Part shown: positions 3,990 to 60,362 of the stretch, piece by piece
Layout: each line of letters starts with the position of its first letter
Position numbering within the stretch: position 1 is the stretch's first letter
Made by a program: the position numbers and the translations under genes
Assembly (NCBI RefSeq): GCF_006345805.1
Contig: NW_021832432.1
Span: 682,001-746,000, forward strand
DNA: 64,000 bases
Direction of reading: 5' to 3'
Origin: Octopus sinensis
Lineage: Eukaryota
The notes under the pieces: generated by a model
Seen by the model: only the letters and a program-made list of their open reading frames with translations
Databases searched by the model: none
Told to the model about the DNA's origin: nothing

Positions 3990-4697
3990 TATACAAGAAA
4001 AATATCAGCATGTCGCTACACTTGACTAACGACCACTGGGACAGCGTGATAAAGACATGCTGACTTGTCGGCTTCAAAGCAGCAACTACCTTTGCTCTCT
4101 TAATTTTTCGCTCCAGTCACGGCTGGGTGGAAGTTGCTGTGTGTATCCTTCCGCCGCCAGCTCCGAGTGGGGCGGAGTACAGCTATCGACTGAGTCAATA
4201 GTAAAAACTGACCCACCGGATTTCCTATCGAAAGAAGGTAAGAATTGCTTTCTCATCGTAGTAGCAATTGCGAGAGAGGTGATTTAGAAGACACGAATGA
4301 AAGGGTTAGTAACAGGTTATTTTATCTCTGGCCCTGGGCTGGTGAATTTTTTCACCTTTTATCTAAGAAGGAAAATAGGGCTAGAGAGAAAACGCCTGTC
4401 CGCGAAAATGTTTCAAGATCGATGGAAGAATGTCGCACGAATGTTGCGTATGGATGGGACCGCATGAATACAACTCAGGATGTGCCTAAAACATCAGTGG
4501 TGAGGCGGAGCTCGTGATGTCCGAGCATATCTCGCCTCCCCACTCCATTTTGTAATGTTGTCTTGCTATCATTCGAACTCTTGATATTTATATAAAATTT
4601 TTAAATTCATCTTTATGTCAATTCATACGTTAAATCTGACCCCATATCAGATTGTACTGTTCCCTCTGTGTTGTACCCTTGAGGGAAATAAAAAAAT
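3990..4697 (+). mobile_element. 3' fragment of a Tx1/L1-like LINE (ORF2 C-terminus and 3' UTR), degenerate
   Basis: Translates ...KTRMKGLVTGYFISGPGLVNFFTFYLRRKIGLERKRLSAKMFQDRWKNVARMLRMDG*, homologous to ORF 30726-31037; ends CCCTCTGTGTTGTACCCTTGAGGGAAATAAAAAAAT. The 5' boundary is uncertain. Confidence 0.7.
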
Positions 4698-4882
4698 GCG
4701 AAATGCTTAGCGGTATTTCGTCTGTCTTTATGTTCTGAGTTCAAATTCCGCCGAGGTCGACTTCGCCTTTCAGCCTTTCGGAGTCGATAAATTAAATATC
4801 AGTTACGTACTTGGGGTCGATCTAATCGACTGGCCCCCTCCCTCAAAATTTCAGGCCTTGCGCCTAGAGTAGAAAAGAATAA
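4698..4882 (+). mobile_element. SINE-A, tail-2 type, 5'-truncated
   Basis: B-box-like GAGTTCAAATTCC; central GCCTTTCA.CCTTTCGG.GTCGATAAA core resembling the Deu/Nin domain; tail ...GGCCTTGCGCCTAGAGTAGAAAAG. Confidence 0.85.
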
Positions 4883-9677: not shown

Positions 9678-10075
9678 AAGGCGGCGAGCTGGCAGAAACG
9701 TTAGCACGCCGGGCGAAAAGCTATGCAGTATTTCGTCTGCCGCTACGTTCTGAGTTCAATTTCCGCCGAGGTCGACTTTGCCTTTCATCCTTTCGGGGTC
9801 GATTAAATAAGTACCAGTTACGCACTGGGGTCGATATAATCGACTTAATCCATTTGTCTGTCCTTGTTTGTCCTGCCTGTGTTTAGCCCCTTGTGGGTAG
9901 TAAAGAAATTGGTATTTCGCCTGTCTTTATGTTCTGAGTTCAAATTCCGCCGAGGGCGACTTTGCTTTTCATCCTTTCGGGGTTGATAAATTAAGTACCA
10001 GTTGTGTACTGAGGTCGATCTAATCGACTGGCCCACCTCCCCCAAAATTTCGGGCCTTGTGCCTAGAGTAGAAAA
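9678..10075 (+). mobile_element. Composite (dimeric) SINE-A: head-body-tail1-body-tail2
   Basis: One 17-bp TSD CATTAAG(A/T)TTAGAAGGT at 9661-9677 and 10076-10092 flanks the whole dimer. Confidence 0.9.
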
Positions 10076-10679: not shown

Positions 10680-10904
10680 GAGCTGGCAGAATTGTTAGCA
10701 CGCCGGGCGAAATGCGTAGCCGTATTTCGTCTGCCGTTACGTTCTGAGTTCAAATTCCGCCGAGGTCGACTTTGCTTTTCATCCTTTCGGGGTCGATAAA
10801 TTAAGTACCAGTTATGCACTGGGGTCAGTGTAATTGACTTGATCCTTTTGTCTGTCCTTGTTTGTCCCCTCTGTGTTTAGCCCCTTGTGGGTAGTAAAGA
10901 AATA
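10680..10904 (+). mobile_element. SINE-A, tail-1 monomer
   Basis: 12-bp TSD GGTACAATGCTG at 10668-10679 and 10905-10916. Confidence 0.92.
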
Positions 10905-10953
10905 GGTACAATGCTGTCAGTGTAATCAAATAATACAATTATCTAGGTATAAT

Positions 10954-16982: not shown

Positions 16983-17947
16983 ATTTATTTTCGGATCTTT
17001 ACTTTCTAAGTTTAAATCACACCATGGCTCAATTGGGTGGCAAATTTAATCCTTCAACCACTTTTTAACATCACAATCTGATATTTTGGGTATCTTTAGC
17101 AGAGTCAATTCTGTTGCAAGCATTGGGTCTTCAGTTTGAAGATCTCTTCCTTTCCCCTCCCATCCGTTTTGGAGGTCTTGTAAAGGGTCACGGGCACTGC
17201 TTTGCCTCTTGTTTTAAAATAATAATAATAAAAAAAAAATGAATAAATAGGTTTTCTTTCAGGTCAGACATCACAAATATATAAAACATAACCAGTTTTA
17301 ATTTTATTTATTTGACAGTAAGCAATATAAACACCTACAACTAGAGAGGCAGGAAAAGAAAATGCAATATTTTCAATACCAATTTATTTCTTAAAAAAAA
17401 GAAGCTACTTCTATTTCATCATGTCTCATGATATATGCAACACTAAGAAAACTCGCCCCACATTCTTTGGTGTCTTACACACGTATTCATATTGTGCAAG
17501 GGTTAATCCTGGCCCGTGTGAGTATATCGTCATAGTAATGTTAACAAGTTGCAAGAAATAGACGGTTCGAAGTAAATGGCTAAAGCCATCTTTCTTTCAG
17601 GGAAGAGTGGTTGATGGTAGAAACGATAGACCGTCAGAAAAAATATCTTGCAAAGTAATAGATGATGTTACTTTGCGTATGAAGCTTGAATCCTGCCAAG
17701 TTCAACTTTTTTCATTCTCCTAAGGTCGATATAAGTATCAATTAAGTACTGGTGCAGATTTAAATCGGTTATTTCCTGCCTCCCCAAAAGAAATCTGTGC
17801 CGTCCTGTCAATACTAGAAATCGAAAATATCAATGTTGTGTATTTGACAACAAGCATTAGAGAAAATTAATGGCAATGCATTTATCTTCAGTCACTGAAT
17901 TTTTCTAAGAGACGATAAACAGAGTGACAGTAGCTTGCATTATATCT

Positions 17948-18172
17948 GTTTCTTTTTATTACCCACAAGGGTCTAAACATAGAAGGGACAAACAAGGACA
18001 GACAAACGGATTAAGTCGATTACATCGACCCCAGTGCATAACTGATACTTAATTTATCGACCCCGAAAGGATGAAAGGCAAACCCGACCTCGGCGGAAAT
18101 TGAACTCAGAACGTAACGGCAGACGAAATACGGCTACGCATTTCGCCCGGCGTGCTAACGGTTCTGCCAGCG
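17948..18172 (-). mobile_element. SINE-A, tail-1 monomer
   Basis: Nearly identical to 8353-8583. Confidence 0.9.
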
Positions 18173-18885
18173 GCACAGTATTTTTTAAAAGCAGCAATAC
18201 TTTTAAAGTAACAAAACTGAATTAGTTTATTTCGTCTAAGATAGGGTAGAAAGGCTTAGTGTTGTAAGTAACGACAGCACAATAGACTCAATGATGAACC
18301 GTCATATGAACCAATAAGGAATGCTCTATGTAGTTGCCGTCCTTACAAAAATTTGCAGCTAAGTCTCGTACCATACCGTCTTACAATAACAGAAATGTCA
18401 TGTTTGTTAATGTAGTTTTCGATATACTAAATTTGTATGCAAAAAGGTTCATAGTGTGAATCTCTTTTTTGATAGATTTGCCTGACGAGTGGGTTAAACA
18501 ACTACAACGGTAGCACTGTAGCAGGTCTCTCACTTGTCGTTTTCAATCAGAAAATTCTTTGTAAATGGTGACATTTGGAATTTTGACGAAGTGAGTAATG
18601 ACGTCCACAAAAATCTGGTCAATAAAATCATACGTAAACATCTATAGTATTTTTCAGAGGTTATATCACCACAGATCTTTCCAATCACATTTGTTCTGAA
18701 GTATATTGAAAGAGACTAGATTTATCAAGGCGGACAGACAGCGGCGAACGGAAGATAGAGGGAATAGAGAACAGAATGAAGTCATGCGTCCACACCAGGC
18801 TCTATTCATTATCAGCTGTTGAGGAACGTCAAGTACGAAGAGTCTTCAACACTAAGTGCCCAAGGTCATACTAGCAGAGGAACCT

Positions 18886-20568
18886 GCTTCTTTATTGCCC
18901 ACAAGGGGCCAACACAGAGGGGACAACACAAAGATATGTGGGTACACATAACAAATAATTGAAAAATGGGAAAACGTATGATATAATGAATGATAAAAAA
19001 TGAAAATGAGAAATGGAATGAAGTTTCCTCTGCCCCACCTCTGAGTTACTTCATTTTGCGTCTGTTCTTTTTTCCTTTTAAACCCGGAGCCTTCCAAAAT
19101 GTCCACTCCGTACTCCTTCAGTAAGAACGTGTAATCCATATTCTCTGGCAGTTTTTGAATGTATAGATCGACTTGCCATATTTTATATGCTTTTTTAAAT
19201 TTTACAATTTTCTCTCTTTGGTTTTCGTCCAACAACTGGCAGCAATGCCACCCTTGCACGTTGTCGAACTTGTGAGTGTCCACCGCTCTAATGTTCTTCC
19301 ACTTTTTTTTTTTATTTCTTCATACAATTTTTTATTTGTGTTATCATACTTCATTACATAGTTTACTTGCTTTTTTTTCCGGGGGAGGGGAGATTGAAAT
19401 GCTTGTGTCTGACTGTGTTTGTTTTCGTGTTGGAGGGGGCGGGGCGGGTAGGTTCAGTGTCTGTAGGGAGCGGGTGGGTTTCGGTATTTATTTTACTGGT
19501 TTCTTACTTTTTCTCTTTTTCTTTCCTGGTGTCACCCATTCGTCTTCCGTTCCACCTGCTTCTTCTGTTACTACTGGTAGTGGTATTGTTTCCTCCTTTT
19601 CTTTTACTGGTTCTTCCATTTTTCTTTGTAGAGGACAGTTTGCTCTAATGTGACCTTTCTGGCCATACTTATAGCACCTGGGTATCCTGCCCTCTACTCT
19701 GACTACCATCGTTGTATCTCTAAACACTTTTGTTTCCGGTAGTTCTTCTATTATATCGTTTGGTCCCCATATCCCCATATTTAATGGGGGATATGGGGAC
19801 CTTTTCAATTCCTTGTTTCCGTTTTGGTGGCCTGGAGAACCTCCATCTCTTCCTCGTTACCAGGCAGAGTTGACATCCGGGGCGACTACTATTACGTTGA
19901 ACTTTATACCACTCTTACTACTATATATTGGCAACAAAGTTACTTCCTCGTTCTTCAATATTATTGACGAGTTTAAACTTGCACTGCCTACATCATTTTA
20001 TTGGACTTTAATTGTACCAAATTTATTGCCTCTTGTTACATACTCTATATCCTGCCATACGTGCCTTAGAACCTTCTCCACTTGGGTCGTGTCATCTCTT
20101 TGATTCTTCCTTCTGCCATTGAGTGTGTTTTATACGCTACCGTACATCTTGTTATTTTGTCAATCATCTCCATTGACGCGGTTACTTCTACCTTTGTTCC
20201 GTCTCTTTTCATCATTTTGGAGTACTTCTTCCGTTCTCTCAAATCTACTCTACTTACTGACACCTTAGACACTCTTGCGTAGCTTCTTTCATTCCTGTTA
20301 GCCCACGAAGTGACCGACTGCTCAGAATCGGACACTTCAGTGTAGCTAATATCTGACGAGCTGAATTCTTCCATTTTTACCTGGCTTACCTTCTTCTATG
20401 AGGAGGTAAGGCACAACTAGGCTGCCACAGGGCAGCAAAAAGCCCAAGTGTTCAAAGAACACTACAATTAACAACGATAATCTCAACAGTAACTTTACTT
20501 TAACAATATCTACGTGAACACTCGATCAGCAACAAAAACTACTACAAGTGAGAAAATTCAAACCTGCG
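18886..20568 (-). mobile_element. ORF1-only non-autonomous non-LTR retroelement (HAL1-like, Tx1/L1-related)
   Basis: 22-bp TSD GGTCATACTA(G/A)CAGAGGAACCT at 18864-18885 and 20569-20590; ORF1 only; 3' end GTCCCCTCTGTGTTGGCCCCTTGTGGGCAATAAAGAA. Confidence 0.8.
19030..20374 (-). pseudogene. Disrupted ORF1 (gag-like nucleic-acid-binding protein with a zinc knuckle)
   Basis: Pieces 20066-20374, 19488-19808 and 18852-19283; VRVEGRIPRCYKYGQKGHIRANC is a degenerate CX2CX4HX4C, followed by EWVTPGKKKRK. Contains stops and frameshifts; no RT or EN motifs seen. Confidence 0.75.
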
Positions 20569-22262
20569 GGTCATACTAACAGAGGAACCTATGTTACGGA
20601 AGCTGACATTCATATTTATTCATTCTCTCTATCTCCCCCTTACGCACTCAGAACCACAGAAATTGTCCAACCACTACTTTTATTCATTCAACTAACTTCC
20701 CAACATTCCTATTTCTTATTGTTAAAGTATATAGCTTTGACAATCGTTTCGTTAGCTTGGAAGGCTAAGTTCGTGTCCTGTAGTGTCTGGCTTCGTCAAA
20801 AGCCCTAACAATGCATACAGTTCTTTCAATTCTGCTATCGACTACTTTACCTGCATGGGCTCCGATATAAACAAAACACCGACGTTGGTTCTCTGACATT
20901 TAAGACTAGGTTAATGCCGGATTAAGTCTTTCCTCACCACAATTATCTCGTTTGAATATTTTCTTCTAGCCTTTGTCCGTATATCACACTCCAGTATTAA
21001 GCTTCAACAATATATTTTCATGTTACAAACAATTGACAGAATTAGCCGAGTTACGCCTATTTATAACTTCTATTCAGATCTCGTCGGTAACAACGATCAG
21101 CATTTCCTCCTTCCGGAATCAATAAAATAAGAACCATTCAAGAACGGAACCTGTTTAGATATGCTGTTCCCTATCCCCCCCCCCCGCTACCAAAGTTATT
21201 TACTGACAACAATAATAGTAACCTAGGGTCATTGTTGGAATAGACTTTTAGGGACCCCATAACTATTGCTTTAGAAATTACCAAATTGAAATAAAAACAA
21301 AGGAAGCGATAGAAACATTTTCAACTGAGAAATGTTGGAACCGTCTTTGTTATTGTTTATCTCCAAGCTCATTTTGATCGAGTAGTTTTGTATGATCAAA
21401 GACATTTCAGCTTTAACTCTAACACCTTTTTAAGGGTATCTTCGACTGTATTATTTAATACAATGATGGTAAGGTTATGATACGCACCAATAGTGACACA
21501 CTTTGAAAACAATATCCCAGTGGTATCCTGTTATACATTTAAAAAAAAAGTTACAATAAAGAAAAAAAACTCAGCCATTTACCTAAGGTGAAACGCTCTT
21601 GGAAGACACATATTAACTAGTCAAAAGCACAAAGACTATTAACGTCACGTGCAGTTGGTGCGACGAAACTTTTGACACCAAATAAATGTTTAAATAAAAT
21701 TTACAGTTACTGTGTTTATGAGTGGTTAATATATTATGTCTTCCATGCTGTCATTGTTTTACTTTCAACACGAATGAAATCACTTGTCAGGTAAGAACAT
21801 CTCTGAGATTCGTGTGACATTCCAATAATCGGATTATTACAGAAATTAAAATTTCGACTCCGGGTAAAAAAAAATCATTTCATTTGTTTATAAAATAAAT
21901 ATTATAAAATATTTTTCAGCTTCTCAGCCCTAAATACAACAGTAGAGATAAATTACTTCAGAGTTCCCAACGTTTATTGATTTAGTTTTAACAATGTTGG
22001 TGGTTACTGGTTGAATGCTTTTCTTTTGTGATTCTTAAGGACGGTCATCAAAAAAAATTAAAACAAAAATAAACGGAAGCTTAAGTTTATATTTATATAC
22101 GTCTGTTTACATTTAGGGTACTTCATAGGAATATTTAAGAATGGAAGAGAATAACCGATTACACCATCTCAGTACTTTGCTAGTTGTTAGTTTATCGACT
22201 TTGGAGAAGAAAAAGTTAAGTGAAACCTCGATTTCAACTTTGAACGTAAAAAGTTGTAGCCA

Positions 22263-22452
22263 CCATATTTGATGGCATACAAGACGCTCTTTTTCCCCTC
22301 AACAAAATGTCTCGAAACATCACCCCGGGTCCTATATGTGAAATTGGGCTTTCCATAAGCGTTAAAGCACAAAACTTTTTCTCCTAAATATGCGCTGCTA
22401 AAATTAGGGTGCATCTAATATATTCGTACGTTTTTTATGCTATCAAATACGG
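22263..22452. mobile_element. pogo/Tigger-like MITE
   Basis: TIRs CCATATTTGATGGCATA and CCGTATTTGATAGCATA (15/17 match). Confidence 0.65.
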
Positions 22453-23414
22453 CAATTACTATAGGACATGGGTTAGATATTAAAAGCAGTATCCATTAGA
22501 GGTGTTTCAAGGATTCCCAGCGCCCTGAGGTAGAGATCCCTTTGATGCACATCCACTCACCATAACAGGCATGGCGGGCCAGAAGAAATTCTGAGCACTT
22601 TTACAACTGCGCTTGGAGCAACATCCCACCACCCTCACCGCCTCATGCTACGCCTACGATCGGGTGCTGTTTGAATGAGAGTTGGCTGTTATGTCTTTGC
22701 AAATCGAGTGACCAAGAAGAAACCTCTTTGTTGGCTGGTGTTAACAAATACTGGAAGTCTAACTAGTAACGGCATTAAGGTGCATGATATGTGAATTCCA
22801 GCCCCGACTAACTATTTTCATCATTATCTAATTCTGTTTAGGTCACAATTTAATCTATACAACCAGCATTCCATTGATACACATGTACATTCGGTAATCA
22901 AATTCGTAAATTACACAGCATCAGAAACTGGAATTCATTAGTGCAACAGTTATTAAGAATTGAATGGAGAGTGGGCTAAAACTCTTCCTTGGAAAACGAT
23001 ATCTACCAGATAACTTTTCTACAATGCTTTTGTTGAATGAAATACAAGGATGAAACGAAGACTTAATAGCTATTGACAGGAAGTTAGAACGTGACCGGAA
23101 ATCAACCAATGAATTAAGCACAAATGAGGAAATAAAACTTTATTAGCTTTCAGTATAGAATACTTTGCTTCTATGAATTAGACCTTTATAATTTATTAAA
23201 ATGTCGCTCTCCCGTCGATAGAGGAAAAGATGGCGGAGGGGTTAGTTTTCAGGCAAAAGCCAAATATTGAATGTCGTTTTCAGAACGAATATTAATTAAT
23301 TAATACAAATACATATAAATAAACAAAATGACTCAAGAGATATCATAATTGATTATTTAATACTTATTATCTCTAGGCGTTTGAATAGATCTCATGATAT
23401 CTATCTCTATTTTA

Positions 23415-38991: not shown

Positions 38992-39022
<31 letters not shown>

Positions 39023-39023
39023 A

Positions 39024-39062
<39 letters not shown>

Positions 39063-39105
39063 TATATATATATATAGATAGATATAGATATAGATATAGA
39101 TATAG

Positions 39106-39139
<34 letters not shown>

Positions 39140-39142
<3 letters not shown>

Positions 39143-40975
39143 TGTAGCCTGACCCATGATGTTGGTCTTCTTGAGGCTGATAAATAAGCCAAAGTTGCGA
39201 CATGCTTGCTCAAAACAGATGATGAGCCTTTGTAGGGCTTCTTCTGTGTGTGATACCAGAGCGGCACCATCAGCAAATAGCATCTCCTTGATCAGGACGC
39301 TTCTGATTTTGGTCTTGGCACGCAGACGCGAGAGATTGAACAGTTTCCCATCACTTCTACTGTGCAGAAACACTCCATCATCTGATGTCACAAAGGCATG
39401 TGACAGCAGCAGCGAGAAGAAGATGCCAAATAATGTAGGAGCAAGGACACAACCTTGCTTTACCCCATTTTTTATTTGGAAGGCGGCTGATGTTGAACCA
39501 TTGTGCTGTATGGTGCCTTGCATATCATCATGGAAAGATGTGATGATCCTCAGCAGCTTTGGTGGACATCCGATATTTTGGATCAGGATGAAGAGGTCTT
39601 TTCTACTTACCAAGTCAAAGGCCTTTGTCAGATCAATGAAGGCCATATATAATGGCATTTTCTGCTCTCTGGACTTCTCCTGAAGTTGGCGTATGGAGAA
39701 TATCATGTCAATAGTTGATCTGCTTCTTCTAAAGCCACACTGCGATTCTGGATAAATTCGAGAAGCAAGCAGTTGCAGCTTGGACAGGATAATGCGAGCA
39801 GAGGCCTTTCCAACAGTGCTTAGAAGAGATATTCCACGGTAATTGTTACAATCACCATAGTCACCTTTGTTTTTTTAAAGCGTAATGATGTTAGCATCCC
39901 GCATATCCCTATTCCCAGCACTGACACAGAAGCTCAGAAATTTGCCGAAGCAGGATGGTGTTTTTGCCGGTTTTGATGATCTCTAAGGGGATGCCGTCTT
40001 TTCCCGGAGCCTTGTTACTTGCTAGGGAGTCAATAGCCTTGGTGAGCTCTGCTATAGATGGCAGACTGTCAAGTTCACACATGACTGGCAAGATCTTGAC
40101 ACCCTCGATTGCAGCCTCAGCTACCGTGGACTCTCGTGAGTAGAGATCCTGGTAGTACTCCACCCATCTATCCATTTGCTTGCTTTGGTCCTTGATGAGA
40201 TCTCCAGTAGTTGATTTCAGAGGGTCTGACTTGGTTGCGGATGGACCGAGGGCCTTCTTAAAACCGGCATACATCCCACGGGTGTCCCCACTGTCAGCAG
40301 CTGACTGGATACTCTGACAGTTTCCTGCCAATACTTATTTGCACAGCGTCTGACAGTCAGTTGGGTTTTATTTCTTGCCTTTCTGAGTTCTTCGAGTGAC
40401 TTTATAGAAGAATCACTCTAGTATTACATCAGAGCTGCACGCTTTGTTTCGATAACTGTTTCCAGCTCTGAGAGCCCAGCACTGAAAAAAATCTGGGTTT
40501 TGCCTTTCTCTCATGCCGAAAGTATCTATTGATGTGGTATACAAAGCTTCCCTGATATAATTCCACCAACTTTCAGCAGAGGTGGTTGGGCAGCTACTGA
40601 GGGCAACTTTGATAGTAACAGCAAAACATTGTCGCAGTGTAGGGTCGGAGGTTCTGGCAGTGTTAATGCGTGGTTGGCCCATTTTCTTGGATTGATGGAC
40701 TTTTTAGGCAGAATCCTCACCCTGCTTCTTATTAGTGAATGATCTGTGTCACAATCCGCGCTGTGGTAACTACGAGTCAGTTGAATAGAATTCAGAAAGG
40801 GTCTTCGTGTAATGATGAGATCCAGCTGATGCCAGTGGTGAGATCTTGGATATCTCCAAGATGCCTTGTGGGATGTCTTGTTGGCAAAGAATGTGTTAGT
40901 GATGCACAGGTTATGGTATGTGCAAAATTCAAGTAGTCTCTGGCCATTGTCATTTATGTTGTCAATACCAAAACA
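39140..40975 (-). mobile_element. RTE-BovB-like LINE internal fragment (APE and RT), degenerate
   Basis: NDNGQRLLEFC...HWHQLDLIITRR...SADCDTDHSL (APE); KAPGKDGIP; FIDLTKAFD, GVKQGCVLAPTLF, LFADG (RT; catalytic DD mutated). Confidence 0.93.
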
Positions 40976-41074
40976 CATACACTTACATATATACATACAT
41001 ATATATATACGATCGATTTGTTTCAGTTCCTGTCTGCGAAATCCATATATATATATATATATCCATATATATAT

Positions 41075-41142
<68 letters not shown>

Positions 41143-41747
41143 TATATATATATACATACATACATATATGCATACACACACATACATACATATATATTTG
41201 GAATTTACAAAAGAAACGAACAAAAGACGAAGACGGGTGTGTAAACAGCAAACAGGTTTATTAGTTTAACGCTCCGGACTTAGGAAAATTTATATAGAGA
41301 GTACTACTAATTTTAAAGTTAGATATAGGGGACACAAGAATTCATTTATTCACCCCTATATAAAAAATTACAGACATTTTAGTATGTTGTAAGCATAAAT
41401 ATTTAGCGTCTTATCATTTTCTTAAACTTTAAAATATAATTTTTTAGAATATAAGAGCTTTTTGAAAATACGGTCCAATTAGATCATTAGATCCAATGAA
41501 CACTTATGCACAAACCTGTAATCTTAAATTATTTTTTTATAGTAGAGAGTGGAATATTCCCATTAGCTATTATTTGCATGATTAACTAAAGTTAACCTTT
41601 CAATGAATTTCATTTCTTATTTAAACGTGGTAATCCTCTTGAAAATCTGTCACTTATTCATCGATACTCAAAAACCGAACTGTCACCAACTGAATACTCA
41701 CCATGTAGTGCCTTAATGCTCTTTGCTGGATTTTACCTTGAGAAAGG

Positions 41748-42726: not shown

Positions 42727-43453
42727 TACTGGCGAAAATAAATTTAAGACCGATGATAAGAGTTCTATTTCTTACAAAATATTCTGTTACTAGTCCTTTG
42801 CCGATCTTTATATTGACCAGTCTCCGAGTATAACTTCCACGCTCGCACGTAAGCTGGTTTACTGCACTTTAGTTGCTTGCTGATGTTCGAAAAGGAAACT
42901 TTTTGCTGTAATATACTATTTTTGCTCTCGTGACTGGACTAAGGCTACGTTGTTTTCCCATTATTAATAAATTGTATAATAACATTAAATTATAACTTTA
43001 TATGGTGCATTTAGGCTCGTTGTGTGACCACCCATTTTGGCCAAAAAAATTGCATACATATTACATGGTCTTAAACTAATTTTGCCGGTAAATTTGAAAC
43101 GTTTATATTACGTTCTGAGTTCAAATTCCGCCGAGGTCGACTTTGCCTTTCATCCTTTCGGGGTCGATAAATTAAGTACCAGTGACGCACTGGGGTCGAT
43201 GTAATCGACTTAATCCGTTTGTCTGTCCTTGTTTGTCCCTTCTATGTTTAGCCCCTTGTGGGCAGTAAAGAAATATATATTAATTTAGCATTAGAATTCT
43301 TCAAGTTGTATAAAAATTGTTTGCATCATTCGAAAGAGAAATAAATTTTGCATAAGGTGTAAAAGATATAGATAATGTGTATGGTGTTAGTAACAAAATA
43401 TTTTGTAAGAAATAGAACTTTTATCGTCGGTCTTAAATATATTTTCGCCGGTG
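42727..43453. mobile_element. Tc1/mariner-type MITE with ~65-bp TIRs, containing a SINE-A at 43110-43273
   Basis: TACTGGCGAAAATAAATTTAAGACCGATGATAAGAGTTCTATTTCTTACAAAATA and its reverse complement at ~43390-43453; TA on the right. Confidence 0.82.
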
Positions 43454-43461
43454 TATATATC

Positions 43462-44619
43462 TCAGGTCATCCCATAAGTTCTGTCCGAATTTTGGATAAA
43501 GAATCCAAGTAATCAAATGTTATATGTAATTGAAAGTTAATCATCAATGTACTTTCCCTGATTATCTATGACTTTCTTCCATCTATTTACAAGCTTTTTA
43601 ATCCCATCAATGTTAAACTCTTTTGCTTTCAAAGCGAAGAACTCTGAAACGTCAGTTTCGACTTCCTCCTGGCTTGCGAAAGTTATGCTTCCCAAATGAT
43701 TCTGTAAATTACAAAACAAATGGTAGTCTAAAGGAGCAAGGTTGGGAGAATTATGTGGATGAGGAATTTTTTCCCAACCAAGCCCTTCTATCTTCTGTGA
43801 TGTGATCTTTGCAGTGTGGGGTCGCGCATTGTCCTGATGAAACATCACTTCTTTTCGATTCACTAAAGCGGGTCTTTTTTCTTCAAAGCTTGGTTCAAAC
43901 GCGCTAATCGCTGACAGTAGACATAAGCAATGATTGTGGCATTAGGTGGTAACAATTCAAAGTGAATTACTCCTTTACAATCCTACCAGATAGAGAAAAG
44001 AACCTTTTTTCCATGAAGTTCCCTGCTCGGTTGTGGTTGAGCTTTTTCCCTTTTACCAAGCCACTGTTTACGACGTTTAACATTTTGATAAAAGATCCAA
44101 GTTTCGTCACCAGTCACAAGTTGTTGAAGATAACGATGAAAAGTTGTATGGTTTGAACTAAGCTTTATTGCCAATTCTTCAACTGATAATGCAGGATTTT
44201 CTTCAAGTAATGCCCCAAGGAGCTTATTATCAAACTCGACTGGACGTCCTGTTCGATCTTCATCTTCGAGTCTGAAATCTCCACTTCTGAAATTTGCAAA
44301 CCATCTGCAAGTTCTTTCATTCAAGCATTCTTTCCTATAAACTGAGTATATGTTTCGAGTCGCTTCGGCAACAGAGTTCCTTTTTTTGTACTCATAAAGC
44401 ATTATGAGCCTCAAATTCTCTGTGGATACTTCTATGTTAGAAAGGGTTTTAATCAAAGAAATTTTAATTCTATTATTCTGTAAAATGATATTTAATTAGT
44501 TTAAATGTACACAAATGCATAAAAATAATTTTAAATTCCATTAGATATTCTAAAATACTATTAAATTTCATTCAGTTTCAAAAAAGGTAAAATCGGGCAG
44601 AACTTATGGGATGACCTGA
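43462..44619 (-). mobile_element. Mariner (DD34D), degenerate, with an in-frame internal deletion
   Basis: TIR TCAGGTCATCCCATAAGTTCTG at both ends; ORFs 43983-44456 (VTGDETW; WVPHEL region missing) and 43537-43863 (HQDNARPH, SPNLAPLDYHLF). Confidence 0.93.
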
Positions 44620-47099: not shown

Positions 47100-48000
47100 T
47101 CAAGTATCTTTGTAATGTTTGCACTTGATATTAAGTTTTAGTTTGATGGAGATCTTTTGTGCTTTATGTATAATCATTTCAGCATTACATGAGTGATTAA
47201 GGGGGCGTCAATTTGTATTTCTGAACAGTTAACTTACATTAATTTATCTGGTTTACATGCTATAAATTTTTTTGTTAGAAGTACAACCGTAACCCTCTTT
47301 GAAATTTTTTCTATTAAATAGTTTTCTATATCGGTAGTTGGCAGGTAAATAGTTACTTATTAAATCTAAGAAGCTTTCAGCTAGATGTGACTTAACGAAA
47401 AACAAGATGTAAATCAGCTGATATTGTGGCATCTTTCTTAGTTTGGGAATGTGGGGTTTAGGAATATATATATCATCGTTGAATCCAGTATCTTCTAGCA
47501 TTTTATTGTAATACGAAGCCACCATATCAAATATTTCTTTATTGGCTGATAGGTTGGAGATCATTCTGATAATATCAATAGGTTTTTGAAACCTGTAGGT
47601 GGATGGCAGGTGTGTATATTTATATATAAACTTGTCATTAAATTGCCTGTGGTTCAGGCTAACAACTAAAAAAAACATATGATACTTAATGCTTTAAATC
47701 CGCGAGTACGCTTTAGCGGGAGCGATTTCGTTTCGCTATACTCCTGGAAGACTCACAAGCGGGCGGCCTCATAGATTTATGTTAAAGGCTCTGTAATTGA
47801 CAGAAACATCGTTATTTTCAGGTGTAGTCAAACAAAATCGCGCTCGTTAAAGTATACTTACGAGTTCAAAGGGTTAAGATATTGGTGAGAGTTATTTTCA
47901 CGCCAAACTTTTTGCTGGAGTCAACAGTAAAATGTTTCTAAAAATATCTCGTGTATGTCTATTCGCGTATAAGCCAATGTTTGTTTTGGTTGATTTCTTA
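47100..48000 (-). mobile_element. Penelope-like fragment interrupted by a MITE
   Basis: ORF 47253-47678: RMISNLSANKEIF...YNKMLEDTGF...FLDLISNYLP...KLFNRKN. Confidence 0.8.
47690..47873. mobile_element. piggyBac-type palindromic MITE
   Basis: TTAA on both sides (47686-47689, 47874-47877); right end AAAGGG|TTAA; imperfect arms of ~60 bp. Confidence 0.7.
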
Positions 48001-59659: not shown

Positions 59660-60362
59660 CTATGTTTGACTTTTGCTTTATATTTGTACAAGTTGGCTCC
59701 AAGTCTCACCCAGAGACTTCAAGAGACAACAGGTTGGAAGTTCATGTTGTTGTTATGCCTAGTGTGCCATATATTTGGTTTTGTATTTAGTGTTGTACTA
59801 GTGAATGTCTAAAAAAAAACATAAGAAAATTATGTTTGTTTTAAAACTTGAGATTACATAGAAAGTATTTTGCGTAGGATATGAGCAGTTCCCATGATCA
59901 CTATCTTTTGAATTTCTGCCATTTTTCGGTTTCCTGGTATCTGAGTTAGGTAGCAATCAGCCCCTTTTGTTATCATTCCCAGGGCACCTATGACAACAGG
60001 TATTGTTTTAGTCTCCAGGTTCCACATTTTGCTGATTTCTATTTCAAGATCTTTATATTTGCTCAGTTTTTGGTAGGCCTTGACAGATACGTTTATATCG
60101 ATTGGGACAGTCATATCAATGAGGAGGCATGTTCTTTGTCTGAAGTCTTTCAATATGATGTCTGGCCTATTTGCATCTATCTTTCTGTTAATTTGAATGG
60201 TGAAGTTCCAGAGGAGTGAGATGTGGTCATTTTCAAGGTGGTTTGTGTTCCCACCAGTTTTTTTCATGGGGCAAATCCAGGTTTTTGCAAATTACCCAGT
60301 GAATATATTGTGCAGCTCTATCATGCCTGTTGAGATACTCTTTAGGCGCTAGAAGACTGCAC
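59660..60362 (-). mobile_element. R4/Dong-like LINE 3' fragment (RLE domain), inserted in (TAA)n
   Basis: ORF 59854-60267: NRPDIILKD...LLIDMTVP...KLSKYKDL (PD..D and KxxKY motifs); (ATT)n on both flanks. Confidence 0.92.

Follow-up and report, generated by a model that had tools for sequence, protein, structure and literature searches.

The 64,000-nucleotide stretch of Octopus sinensis DNA analysed here (the window) contains, on its minus strand, a decayed retroelement of 1,683 bp (18886..20568) that we regard with considerable confidence as a dead copy of an old lineage of LINE derivatives. Members of this lineage encode ORF1 only and likely borrow the ORF2 protein of Tx1-like LINEs through a terminal tail of about 45 nt. 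A preliminary description had already read the unit as an ORF1-only element retroposed with the help of a Tx1-like ORF2, and overall that reading is supported. Beyond it, the lineage is old and diverse, possesses a domain and an untranslated region (UTR) of its own, and appears to have switched partners.

The window copy and its family

The unit is bounded by 22-bp direct repeats that are 21/22 identical, exactly as described: the 5′ copy of the target-site duplication (TSD) at 20569..20590 (minus strand, like all features of the unit given below unless noted) and the 3′ copy, with 1 mismatch, at 18864..18885. The repeat scores 19.5 compared with 9–10 for the second-best or a shifted-window match, and thus exceeds chance. 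A 5′ UTR of 194 nt (20375..20568; estimated before at ~195 nt), the initial ~70–100 nt of which vary from copy to copy, leads to an ATG at 20374 and an ORF1 remnant of ~440 codons that ends approximately at 19060 (19060..20374). Several frameshifts and in-frame stops break this frame, which had been described as one disrupted ORF of ~450 codons, and the window copy itself is dead. Its N-terminal module, found by profile match at 19632..20227, comprises two RRM-like domains and a CCHC zinc knuckle; the fold evidence for this module is the structure of an intact relative, not of the window copy. The reported knuckle motif, RCYKYGQKGHIRANC, is present at 19635..19676, but its second Cys is replaced by Tyr and the Pfam zf-CCHC match reaches E=0.049 only. 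A lineage-specific C-terminal domain with a predicted ferredoxin-like fold follows at 19092..19354. The 3′ UTR of ~170 nt opens with a predicted hairpin common to ORF1-only subfamilies (19017..19055), closes with the ~45-nt tail that also occurs in ORF2-bearing LINEs and a SINE (18886..18930), and terminates in AATAAAGAAGC without poly(A). There is no reverse transcriptase (RT) or endonuclease frame inside the unit and ORF2 queries give no match to it, which agrees with the earlier account. We also note a 15-bp perfect palindrome within ORF1 (19762..19801, no strand assigned) that occurs in the window copy alone.

An Rfam search of window positions 17000–22500 returned 0 matches at E<=1, so the TSD site is not a known small-RNA gene. 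The 3′ flank gave four other matches of ~55 nt each and no real repeat, and therefore no empty site was found for this copy. Elsewhere the window carries a broken LINE with an RT (39011–41257, minus; Pfam RVT_1, E=6e-30), which we take to be RTE-like, a broken Mariner transposase (43537–44495, minus; HTH_48, Transposase_1), and two minus-strand fragments, at 59854–60291 and 47253–47693, that presumably resemble retroelement C-termini and in which Pfam found no significant match.

A DNA search of the 2.72-Gb genome gave 52 matches (40 of 812 candidates scored). At least 11 of the 51 non-self matches are colinear over at least 1,250 nt at 69–84% identity, and several have TSDs of their own, such as the distinct 19–20-bp repeats that flank L002, L003 and L005; the window unit is therefore not a one-off deletion, and the single-copy case that the preliminary description had named as a way to fail does not apply. 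Among 111 3′ ends found by a UTR profile, a few of them from autonomous LINEs, 46 have a flanking repeat scoring at least 11, compared with 6 in a control in which the right-hand window was shifted by 300 bp. Where the flank sufficed, the repeat measured 11–25 nt in 31/41 cases and the unit 1.37–1.83 kb in 37/41. Copies are dispersed within chromosomes, their flanking repeats differ copy by copy, and 5′-truncated copies that keep intact 3′ ends are common. Nor do copies run on into an ORF2: of the 150 matches scored for the C-terminal segment, the 30 best loci include none (0/30) that is followed by ORF2, and most of these loci show the same UTR and tail. ORF2 similarity within 600 nt downstream was seen for one of 97 clusters of the C-terminal domain, L005, a copy that sits inside the ORF2 of a LINE. 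The family has ORF1 alone across copies, copy-specific TSDs, a selected ORF1 homologous to those of LINEs and a partner-like 3′ end, all features of ORF1-only non-autonomous LINE derivatives of the HAL1, HeT-A and Ag-Sponge type.

Subfamily B has many full-length copies (75–95% identity) and unbroken frames of 412–444 codons. This intact young subfamily lacks the C-terminal domain, and we found no subfamily that combines the domain with an unbroken ORF1. Contigs from three runs, whose RNA origin is a guess, cover most of subfamily B and were not counted as evidence. Several loci are unusual in structure. L136/L137 (C29 at 1.29, 1.35 and 1.41 Mb; C8315) are four identical, internally deleted copies with the C-terminal domain only; lying 51–63 kb apart, they are probably a large tandem repeat. 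L111 and L112 have a C-terminal segment and UTR unlike those of their ORF1 neighbours; by eye, both parts look like the terminal portion of O. bimaculoides P0001, and the two copies may be 3′ recombinants. At L014 an unbroken 182-codon frame, which we take to be similar to the N-terminal part of poly(A)-binding proteins, lies on the opposite strand ~1 kb from an ORF1-only copy.

One ORF1 lineage under selection

Relatives were gathered by searching with the N-terminal module (13,326 candidates, 150 scored), and the autonomous sample consists of the families reached by this similarity. In 11 of the 20 stretches fetched first, an ORF1 with 36–41% identity is followed by an ORF2 of ~1,130 aa with APE, RT and zf-RVT domains; the best solved-structure match of this ORF2 is human L1 ORF2p (E=1.9e-64; R2, 1.6e-20). 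ORF1 types with RRM and CCHC domains occur in the Tx1 group, according to the available text of PMC5203782. With their RRM/CCHC ORF1, APE/RT/zinc ORF2 and target preference, the partner LINEs would fit this group as the accessible parts of PMC4494074 and PMC5203782 present it; the preference for ‘Tx1’ over ‘L1’ is feature-based rather than taken from an RT tree with named references.

We compared ORF1 sequences in two unrooted trees, a quick one of 129 rows and a careful one of an author-chosen 49-row subset. In the quick tree, one branch (SH-aLRT 99) gathers 80 ORF1-only and 15 unclassified rows and 0 of 20 autonomous ones. Two rows labelled ORF1-only fell outside and both were rejected as such: L161 is two elements merged into one row, and L163 is an autonomous copy with an internal deletion. 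In the careful tree, a branch supported at 100/98 and present in 200/200 bootstrap trees separates 36 rows (35 ORF1-only plus L160, unclassified) from the rest, and four unclassified rows on the opposite side proved to bear ORF2. When 7 rows were added, mostly LINEs related to the likely partner of the window copy, the branch kept 96/98 and six of them fell outside. The seventh, L211, fell inside as an apparent exception, but proved to be an ORF1-only unit that has a UTR of its own and merely precedes another LINE. On the ORF1 alignments, a single branch (100/98) thus divides the ORF1-only copies from all the sampled LINEs that carry ORF2. A second ORF1-only-like group, lineage D (L064:3691-, L065 oriented 3314-, L119:6921-, L129:3233- and L175:3002-), sits on its own long branch; it has a different C-terminal segment and UTR yet agrees with subfamily B in tail and SINE target, and is possibly of independent origin.

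The N-terminal module is common to ORF1-only elements and autonomous ORF1s. From an alignment of 20 unbroken modules it is predicted to fold into two RRM-like domains (pLDDT 87), with the RRM1-2 of IMP3 as best Foldseek match (E=2e-5), and the CCHC knuckle comes after them. The extra C-terminal segment of the preliminary description turned out to be a 90-residue domain that was not detected in the autonomous ORF1s sampled (6 autonomous-side frames; best E 0.079). Aligned over 33 stop-free copies, it is predicted to adopt a beta-alpha-beta-beta-alpha-beta topology plus a helix (pLDDT 93). Structural matches are generic ferredoxin-like folds only, with Z up to 5.1 (VIA); the 33 members matched no convincing Pfam family, and searches for the domain gave no atlas match and no Foldseek match at E<=0.001. 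Homology with the C-terminus of lineage D is unsupported (probability 0.3%). RNA binding by this domain is a guess. Octopus species are the source of the homologues of the ORF that have names, and profile matches of the C-terminal domain include gene models of O. vulgaris and O. bimaculoides. The octopus gene models P0002, P0005, P0006 and P0007 are, or contain pieces of, an ORF1-only element, and P0005 apparently joins one to a helicase-like frame.

The suggested dN/dS comparison among subfamilies gave ratios of ~0.1–0.26, which are like those of autonomous LINEs and indicate purifying selection on ORF1. Pairwise dN/dS of the N-terminal module is 0.10–0.26 among young subfamily-B branches and 0.12–0.24 between most older subfamilies, compared with 0.16–0.23 among autonomous copies. 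It rises to 0.26–0.48 between the subfamily of the window copy and its sister, and to 0.52–0.92 within that subfamily, as expected because decay follows insertion. The C-terminal domain gives 0.17–0.47 between subfamilies (pairs with unsaturated dS) and 0.39–0.67 for close pairs, with one very close pair at 2.9. The window copy and its nearest sister differ by a dS of 0.28; at the rate quoted in the part of PMC13282606 open to us, this would crudely correspond to tens of millions of years.

Tails, targets and partners

ORF1-only copies have a common 3′ UTR body of ~150 nt, whereas autonomous LINEs match them only over the last ~45 nt. A hairpin in the initial 40 nt of the UTR is predicted in 22/27 copies (mean z −2.2); consensus folding on a MAFFT alignment did not recover this hairpin and gave it no covariation support, and neither the final 145 nt nor the final 50 nt of the window copy is more stably folded than shuffled sequence (z −0.39 and −1.02, respectively). 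A Tx1-like partner with a common 3′ tail, as the preliminary description had led us to expect, was found: the last 45 nt of the window copy match a 5′-truncated ORF2-bearing LINE (L177/L186) at 97.8%. The UTR of this LINE upstream of the tail is unrelated to that of the window copy, and the ORF1 of its family lies outside the ORF1-only branch. The family of L177/L196/L198/L200 is the likely partner of the window copy. An abundant SINE of the window also matches the tail at its 3′ end, at 78–88% (copies include 17942–18171, 10682–10914, 43108–43280, 4640–4831 and 9688–9907); one such copy, in L024, has a 15-bp TSD, and the SINE is likely mobilized by Tx1-like LINEs as well.

Insertion sites are fixed in the autonomous families and differ between them. 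They comprise (TC)n, two sites within abundant SINEs (presumably the SINEs labelled ‘OK’ and ‘OR’) and the 5′ part of a Mariner element, the transposase start of which can be read downstream. Different ORF1-only subfamilies have tails, targets (the two SINEs and Mariner promoters) and head-to-tail arrays in common with different autonomous families, and mixed tandem arrays at one target occur at L063, L065, L164, L169, L016/L191, L028/L192 and L211. The link between tail and target is clearest at the first SINE, where 20/20 ends find their best match in the tail of the autonomous LINE that inserts there, compared with 1/76 ends elsewhere; outside this class the tails are too alike for partners to be assigned. 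Ends at the first SINE belong to two separate ORF1 sub-branches and one lineage D row. AU tests rejected the grouping of subfamily B with its same-target autonomous partner (p=2.8e-8), which suggests partner switching, and, for groups named after seeing the tree, that of the two SINE-targeting sub-branches (9e-9) and of the Mariner-targeting rows (2e-47). On this sequence evidence, repeated exchange of tails, and hence of partner and target, would be the simplest reading.

For the subfamily of the window copy itself we found no clear common target. The flank of the window copy is not repeated; sites of its subfamily include unique DNA, LINE coding regions, a Gypsy-like 5′ end and the 5′ end of a relative; the TSDs of L001, L002, L003, L005 and L006 have no sequence in common, and the window does not contain the target motif seen in Mariner. 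At L009, L012, L016, L017, L094, L098, L108, L192 and L211 the Mariner 5′ region is a fixed landing site, and such sites receive both autonomous and ORF1-only elements. We looked for a perfect TATA box 21–41 nt upstream of the TSD and found one at 4/5 Mariner sites (control, 4/25 windows), at 4/13 sites that are neither SINE, Mariner nor tandem (control, 2/65), at 0/5 second-SINE sites and at 3/12 first-SINE sites, a count confounded by (TA)n repeats. The window copy has AATAAATA at −30 and no perfect TATA box. Borrowing of a promoter from the target repeat is a weaker lead.

Mode of spread and known counterparts

These observations suggest mobilization in trans by the ORF2p of a partner. A master copy would be transcribed, probably often from the promoter of a host repeat, and its ORF1p, with two RRMs, a knuckle and the extra domain, would coat its own RNA and help to recruit the partner ORF2p, which we propose as the reason that ORF1 has been kept. 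The ORF2p would then cut its preferred site, and target-primed reverse transcription of the RNA would leave TSDs of 11–25 bp. Over time, subfamilies may acquire tails from further autonomous families; the probable route is template switching within head-to-tail arrays of mixed composition, and partner and target would change as a consequence. The fullest version of this model, a protein-coding parasite of LINEs that predates the split of the Octopus species, has a private third domain, swaps ~45 nt and lands at the promoters of mobile elements to be transcribed, is one that we find evenly poised between true and false.

We consider it very unlikely that the ORF1-only subfamilies are instead separate internal deletions, each of the autonomous element that is now its partner, as happened several times with HAL1 in mammals. 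Tails and targets do match specific partners, one-off deleted autonomous copies exist (L163, L195 and the downstream element of L211), and lineage D on its long branch leaves room for at least one further origin. For the main lineage, however, separate deletion is largely refuted by the single branch of ORF1-only rows, by the AU rejection of subfamily B with its partner, and by a C-terminal domain and UTR body that are common across targets, the domain being absent from the 6 autonomous-side ORF1 frames. Slightly less improbable, yet still a poor prospect, is that the units are carried along in read-through transcripts, or by template jumping within tandem arrays that include autonomous LINEs, without recruitment of ORF2p by their own RNA. 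Many copies indeed adjoin a relative or an autonomous LINE head-to-tail at a single target, and 5′ ends often resemble the downstream sequence of the target; but many solo copies, that of the window included, have TSDs tight on a 1.4–1.8-kb unit (37/41 units), and a passenger of this kind fits poorly with purifying selection on ORF1.

A reading in which the 22-bp repeats are part of the element, as a short-terminal-repeat or gag-only LTR derivative or as duplications at the DNA level, has next to no chance of being right. The CCHC knuckle is gag-like and a few copies are identical and in tandem (L025, L136), but the ORF is homologous to LINE ORF1s and 5′-truncated copies with intact 3′ ends are common. 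An LTR or TRIM derivative is refuted by the flanking repeats, which are different in every copy and not part of the element. Trans-mobilization of an old ORF1-only lineage remains our preferred account.

Non-autonomous LINEs that retain ORF1 were listed in 2018 as HeT-A, HAL1 and Ag-Sponge, which represent no clades other than Jockey, L1 and CR1, in the text available of PMC5786205. Our search of the literature found no ORF1-only Tx1 element and none of any kind in cephalopods; a repeat study of O. vulgaris counts 80 L1-Tx1 families and, in the portion accessible, describes no ORF1-only structure (PMC13282606). HAL1 is similar in being non-autonomous, in encoding ORF1p alone and in having long kept its coding capacity, as far as the accessible text of PMC5753468 and PMC3627910 goes. 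HAL1 is derived from mammalian L1 with several origins, whereas the octopus lineage has one deep origin, an RRM-RRM-CCHC ORF1, a partner-like sequence tail instead of poly(A), an added domain and several target specificities; HAL1 proper, with a Transposase_22 ORF1 and a poly(A) end, is ruled out by that ORF1 and the lack of poly(A). HeT-A belongs to the Jockey clade and is telomeric, with a long 3′ UTR. Like the octopus elements it is ORF1-only, needs the RT of a partner and forms head-to-tail arrays with autonomous elements (PMC5786205 and PMC13534243, as available), but the octopus copies are dispersed, ~1.4–1.8 kb long and flanked by TSDs, and identity with HeT-A is ruled out by an L1-group partner and by copies inside chromosomes. 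Ag-Sponge of mosquitoes, in the same part of PMC5786205, is a bipartite non-autonomous LINE with ORF1, of the CR1 clade. In crocodilians, Tx1-Mar LINEs and their non-autonomous SINEU passengers both prefer a Mariner element, and different Tx1 families use different sites (PMC4494074, in the text available). SINEU is non-coding with snRNA heads, whereas the octopus passenger encodes a conserved protein; a further difference is the TATA box found immediately upstream of the octopus Mariner site. By analogy, the octopus lineage would resemble HAL1, HeT-A and Ag-Sponge in its working and Tx1 in its source.

The octopus lineage would thereby add a Tx1-type case to the ORF1-only LINE derivatives. 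For annotation, it matters that fragments of the family already sit within octopus gene models. The lineage also offers two natural tests: of why non-autonomous elements keep ORF1, given selection as strong as in autonomous LINEs, and of how the choice of partner is encoded, given one ORF1 lineage with different 45-nt tails that track targets. Intact young pairs of an ORF1-only element of subfamily B and an autonomous LINE stand side by side at L063/L164, so tail-swap assays are directly possible.
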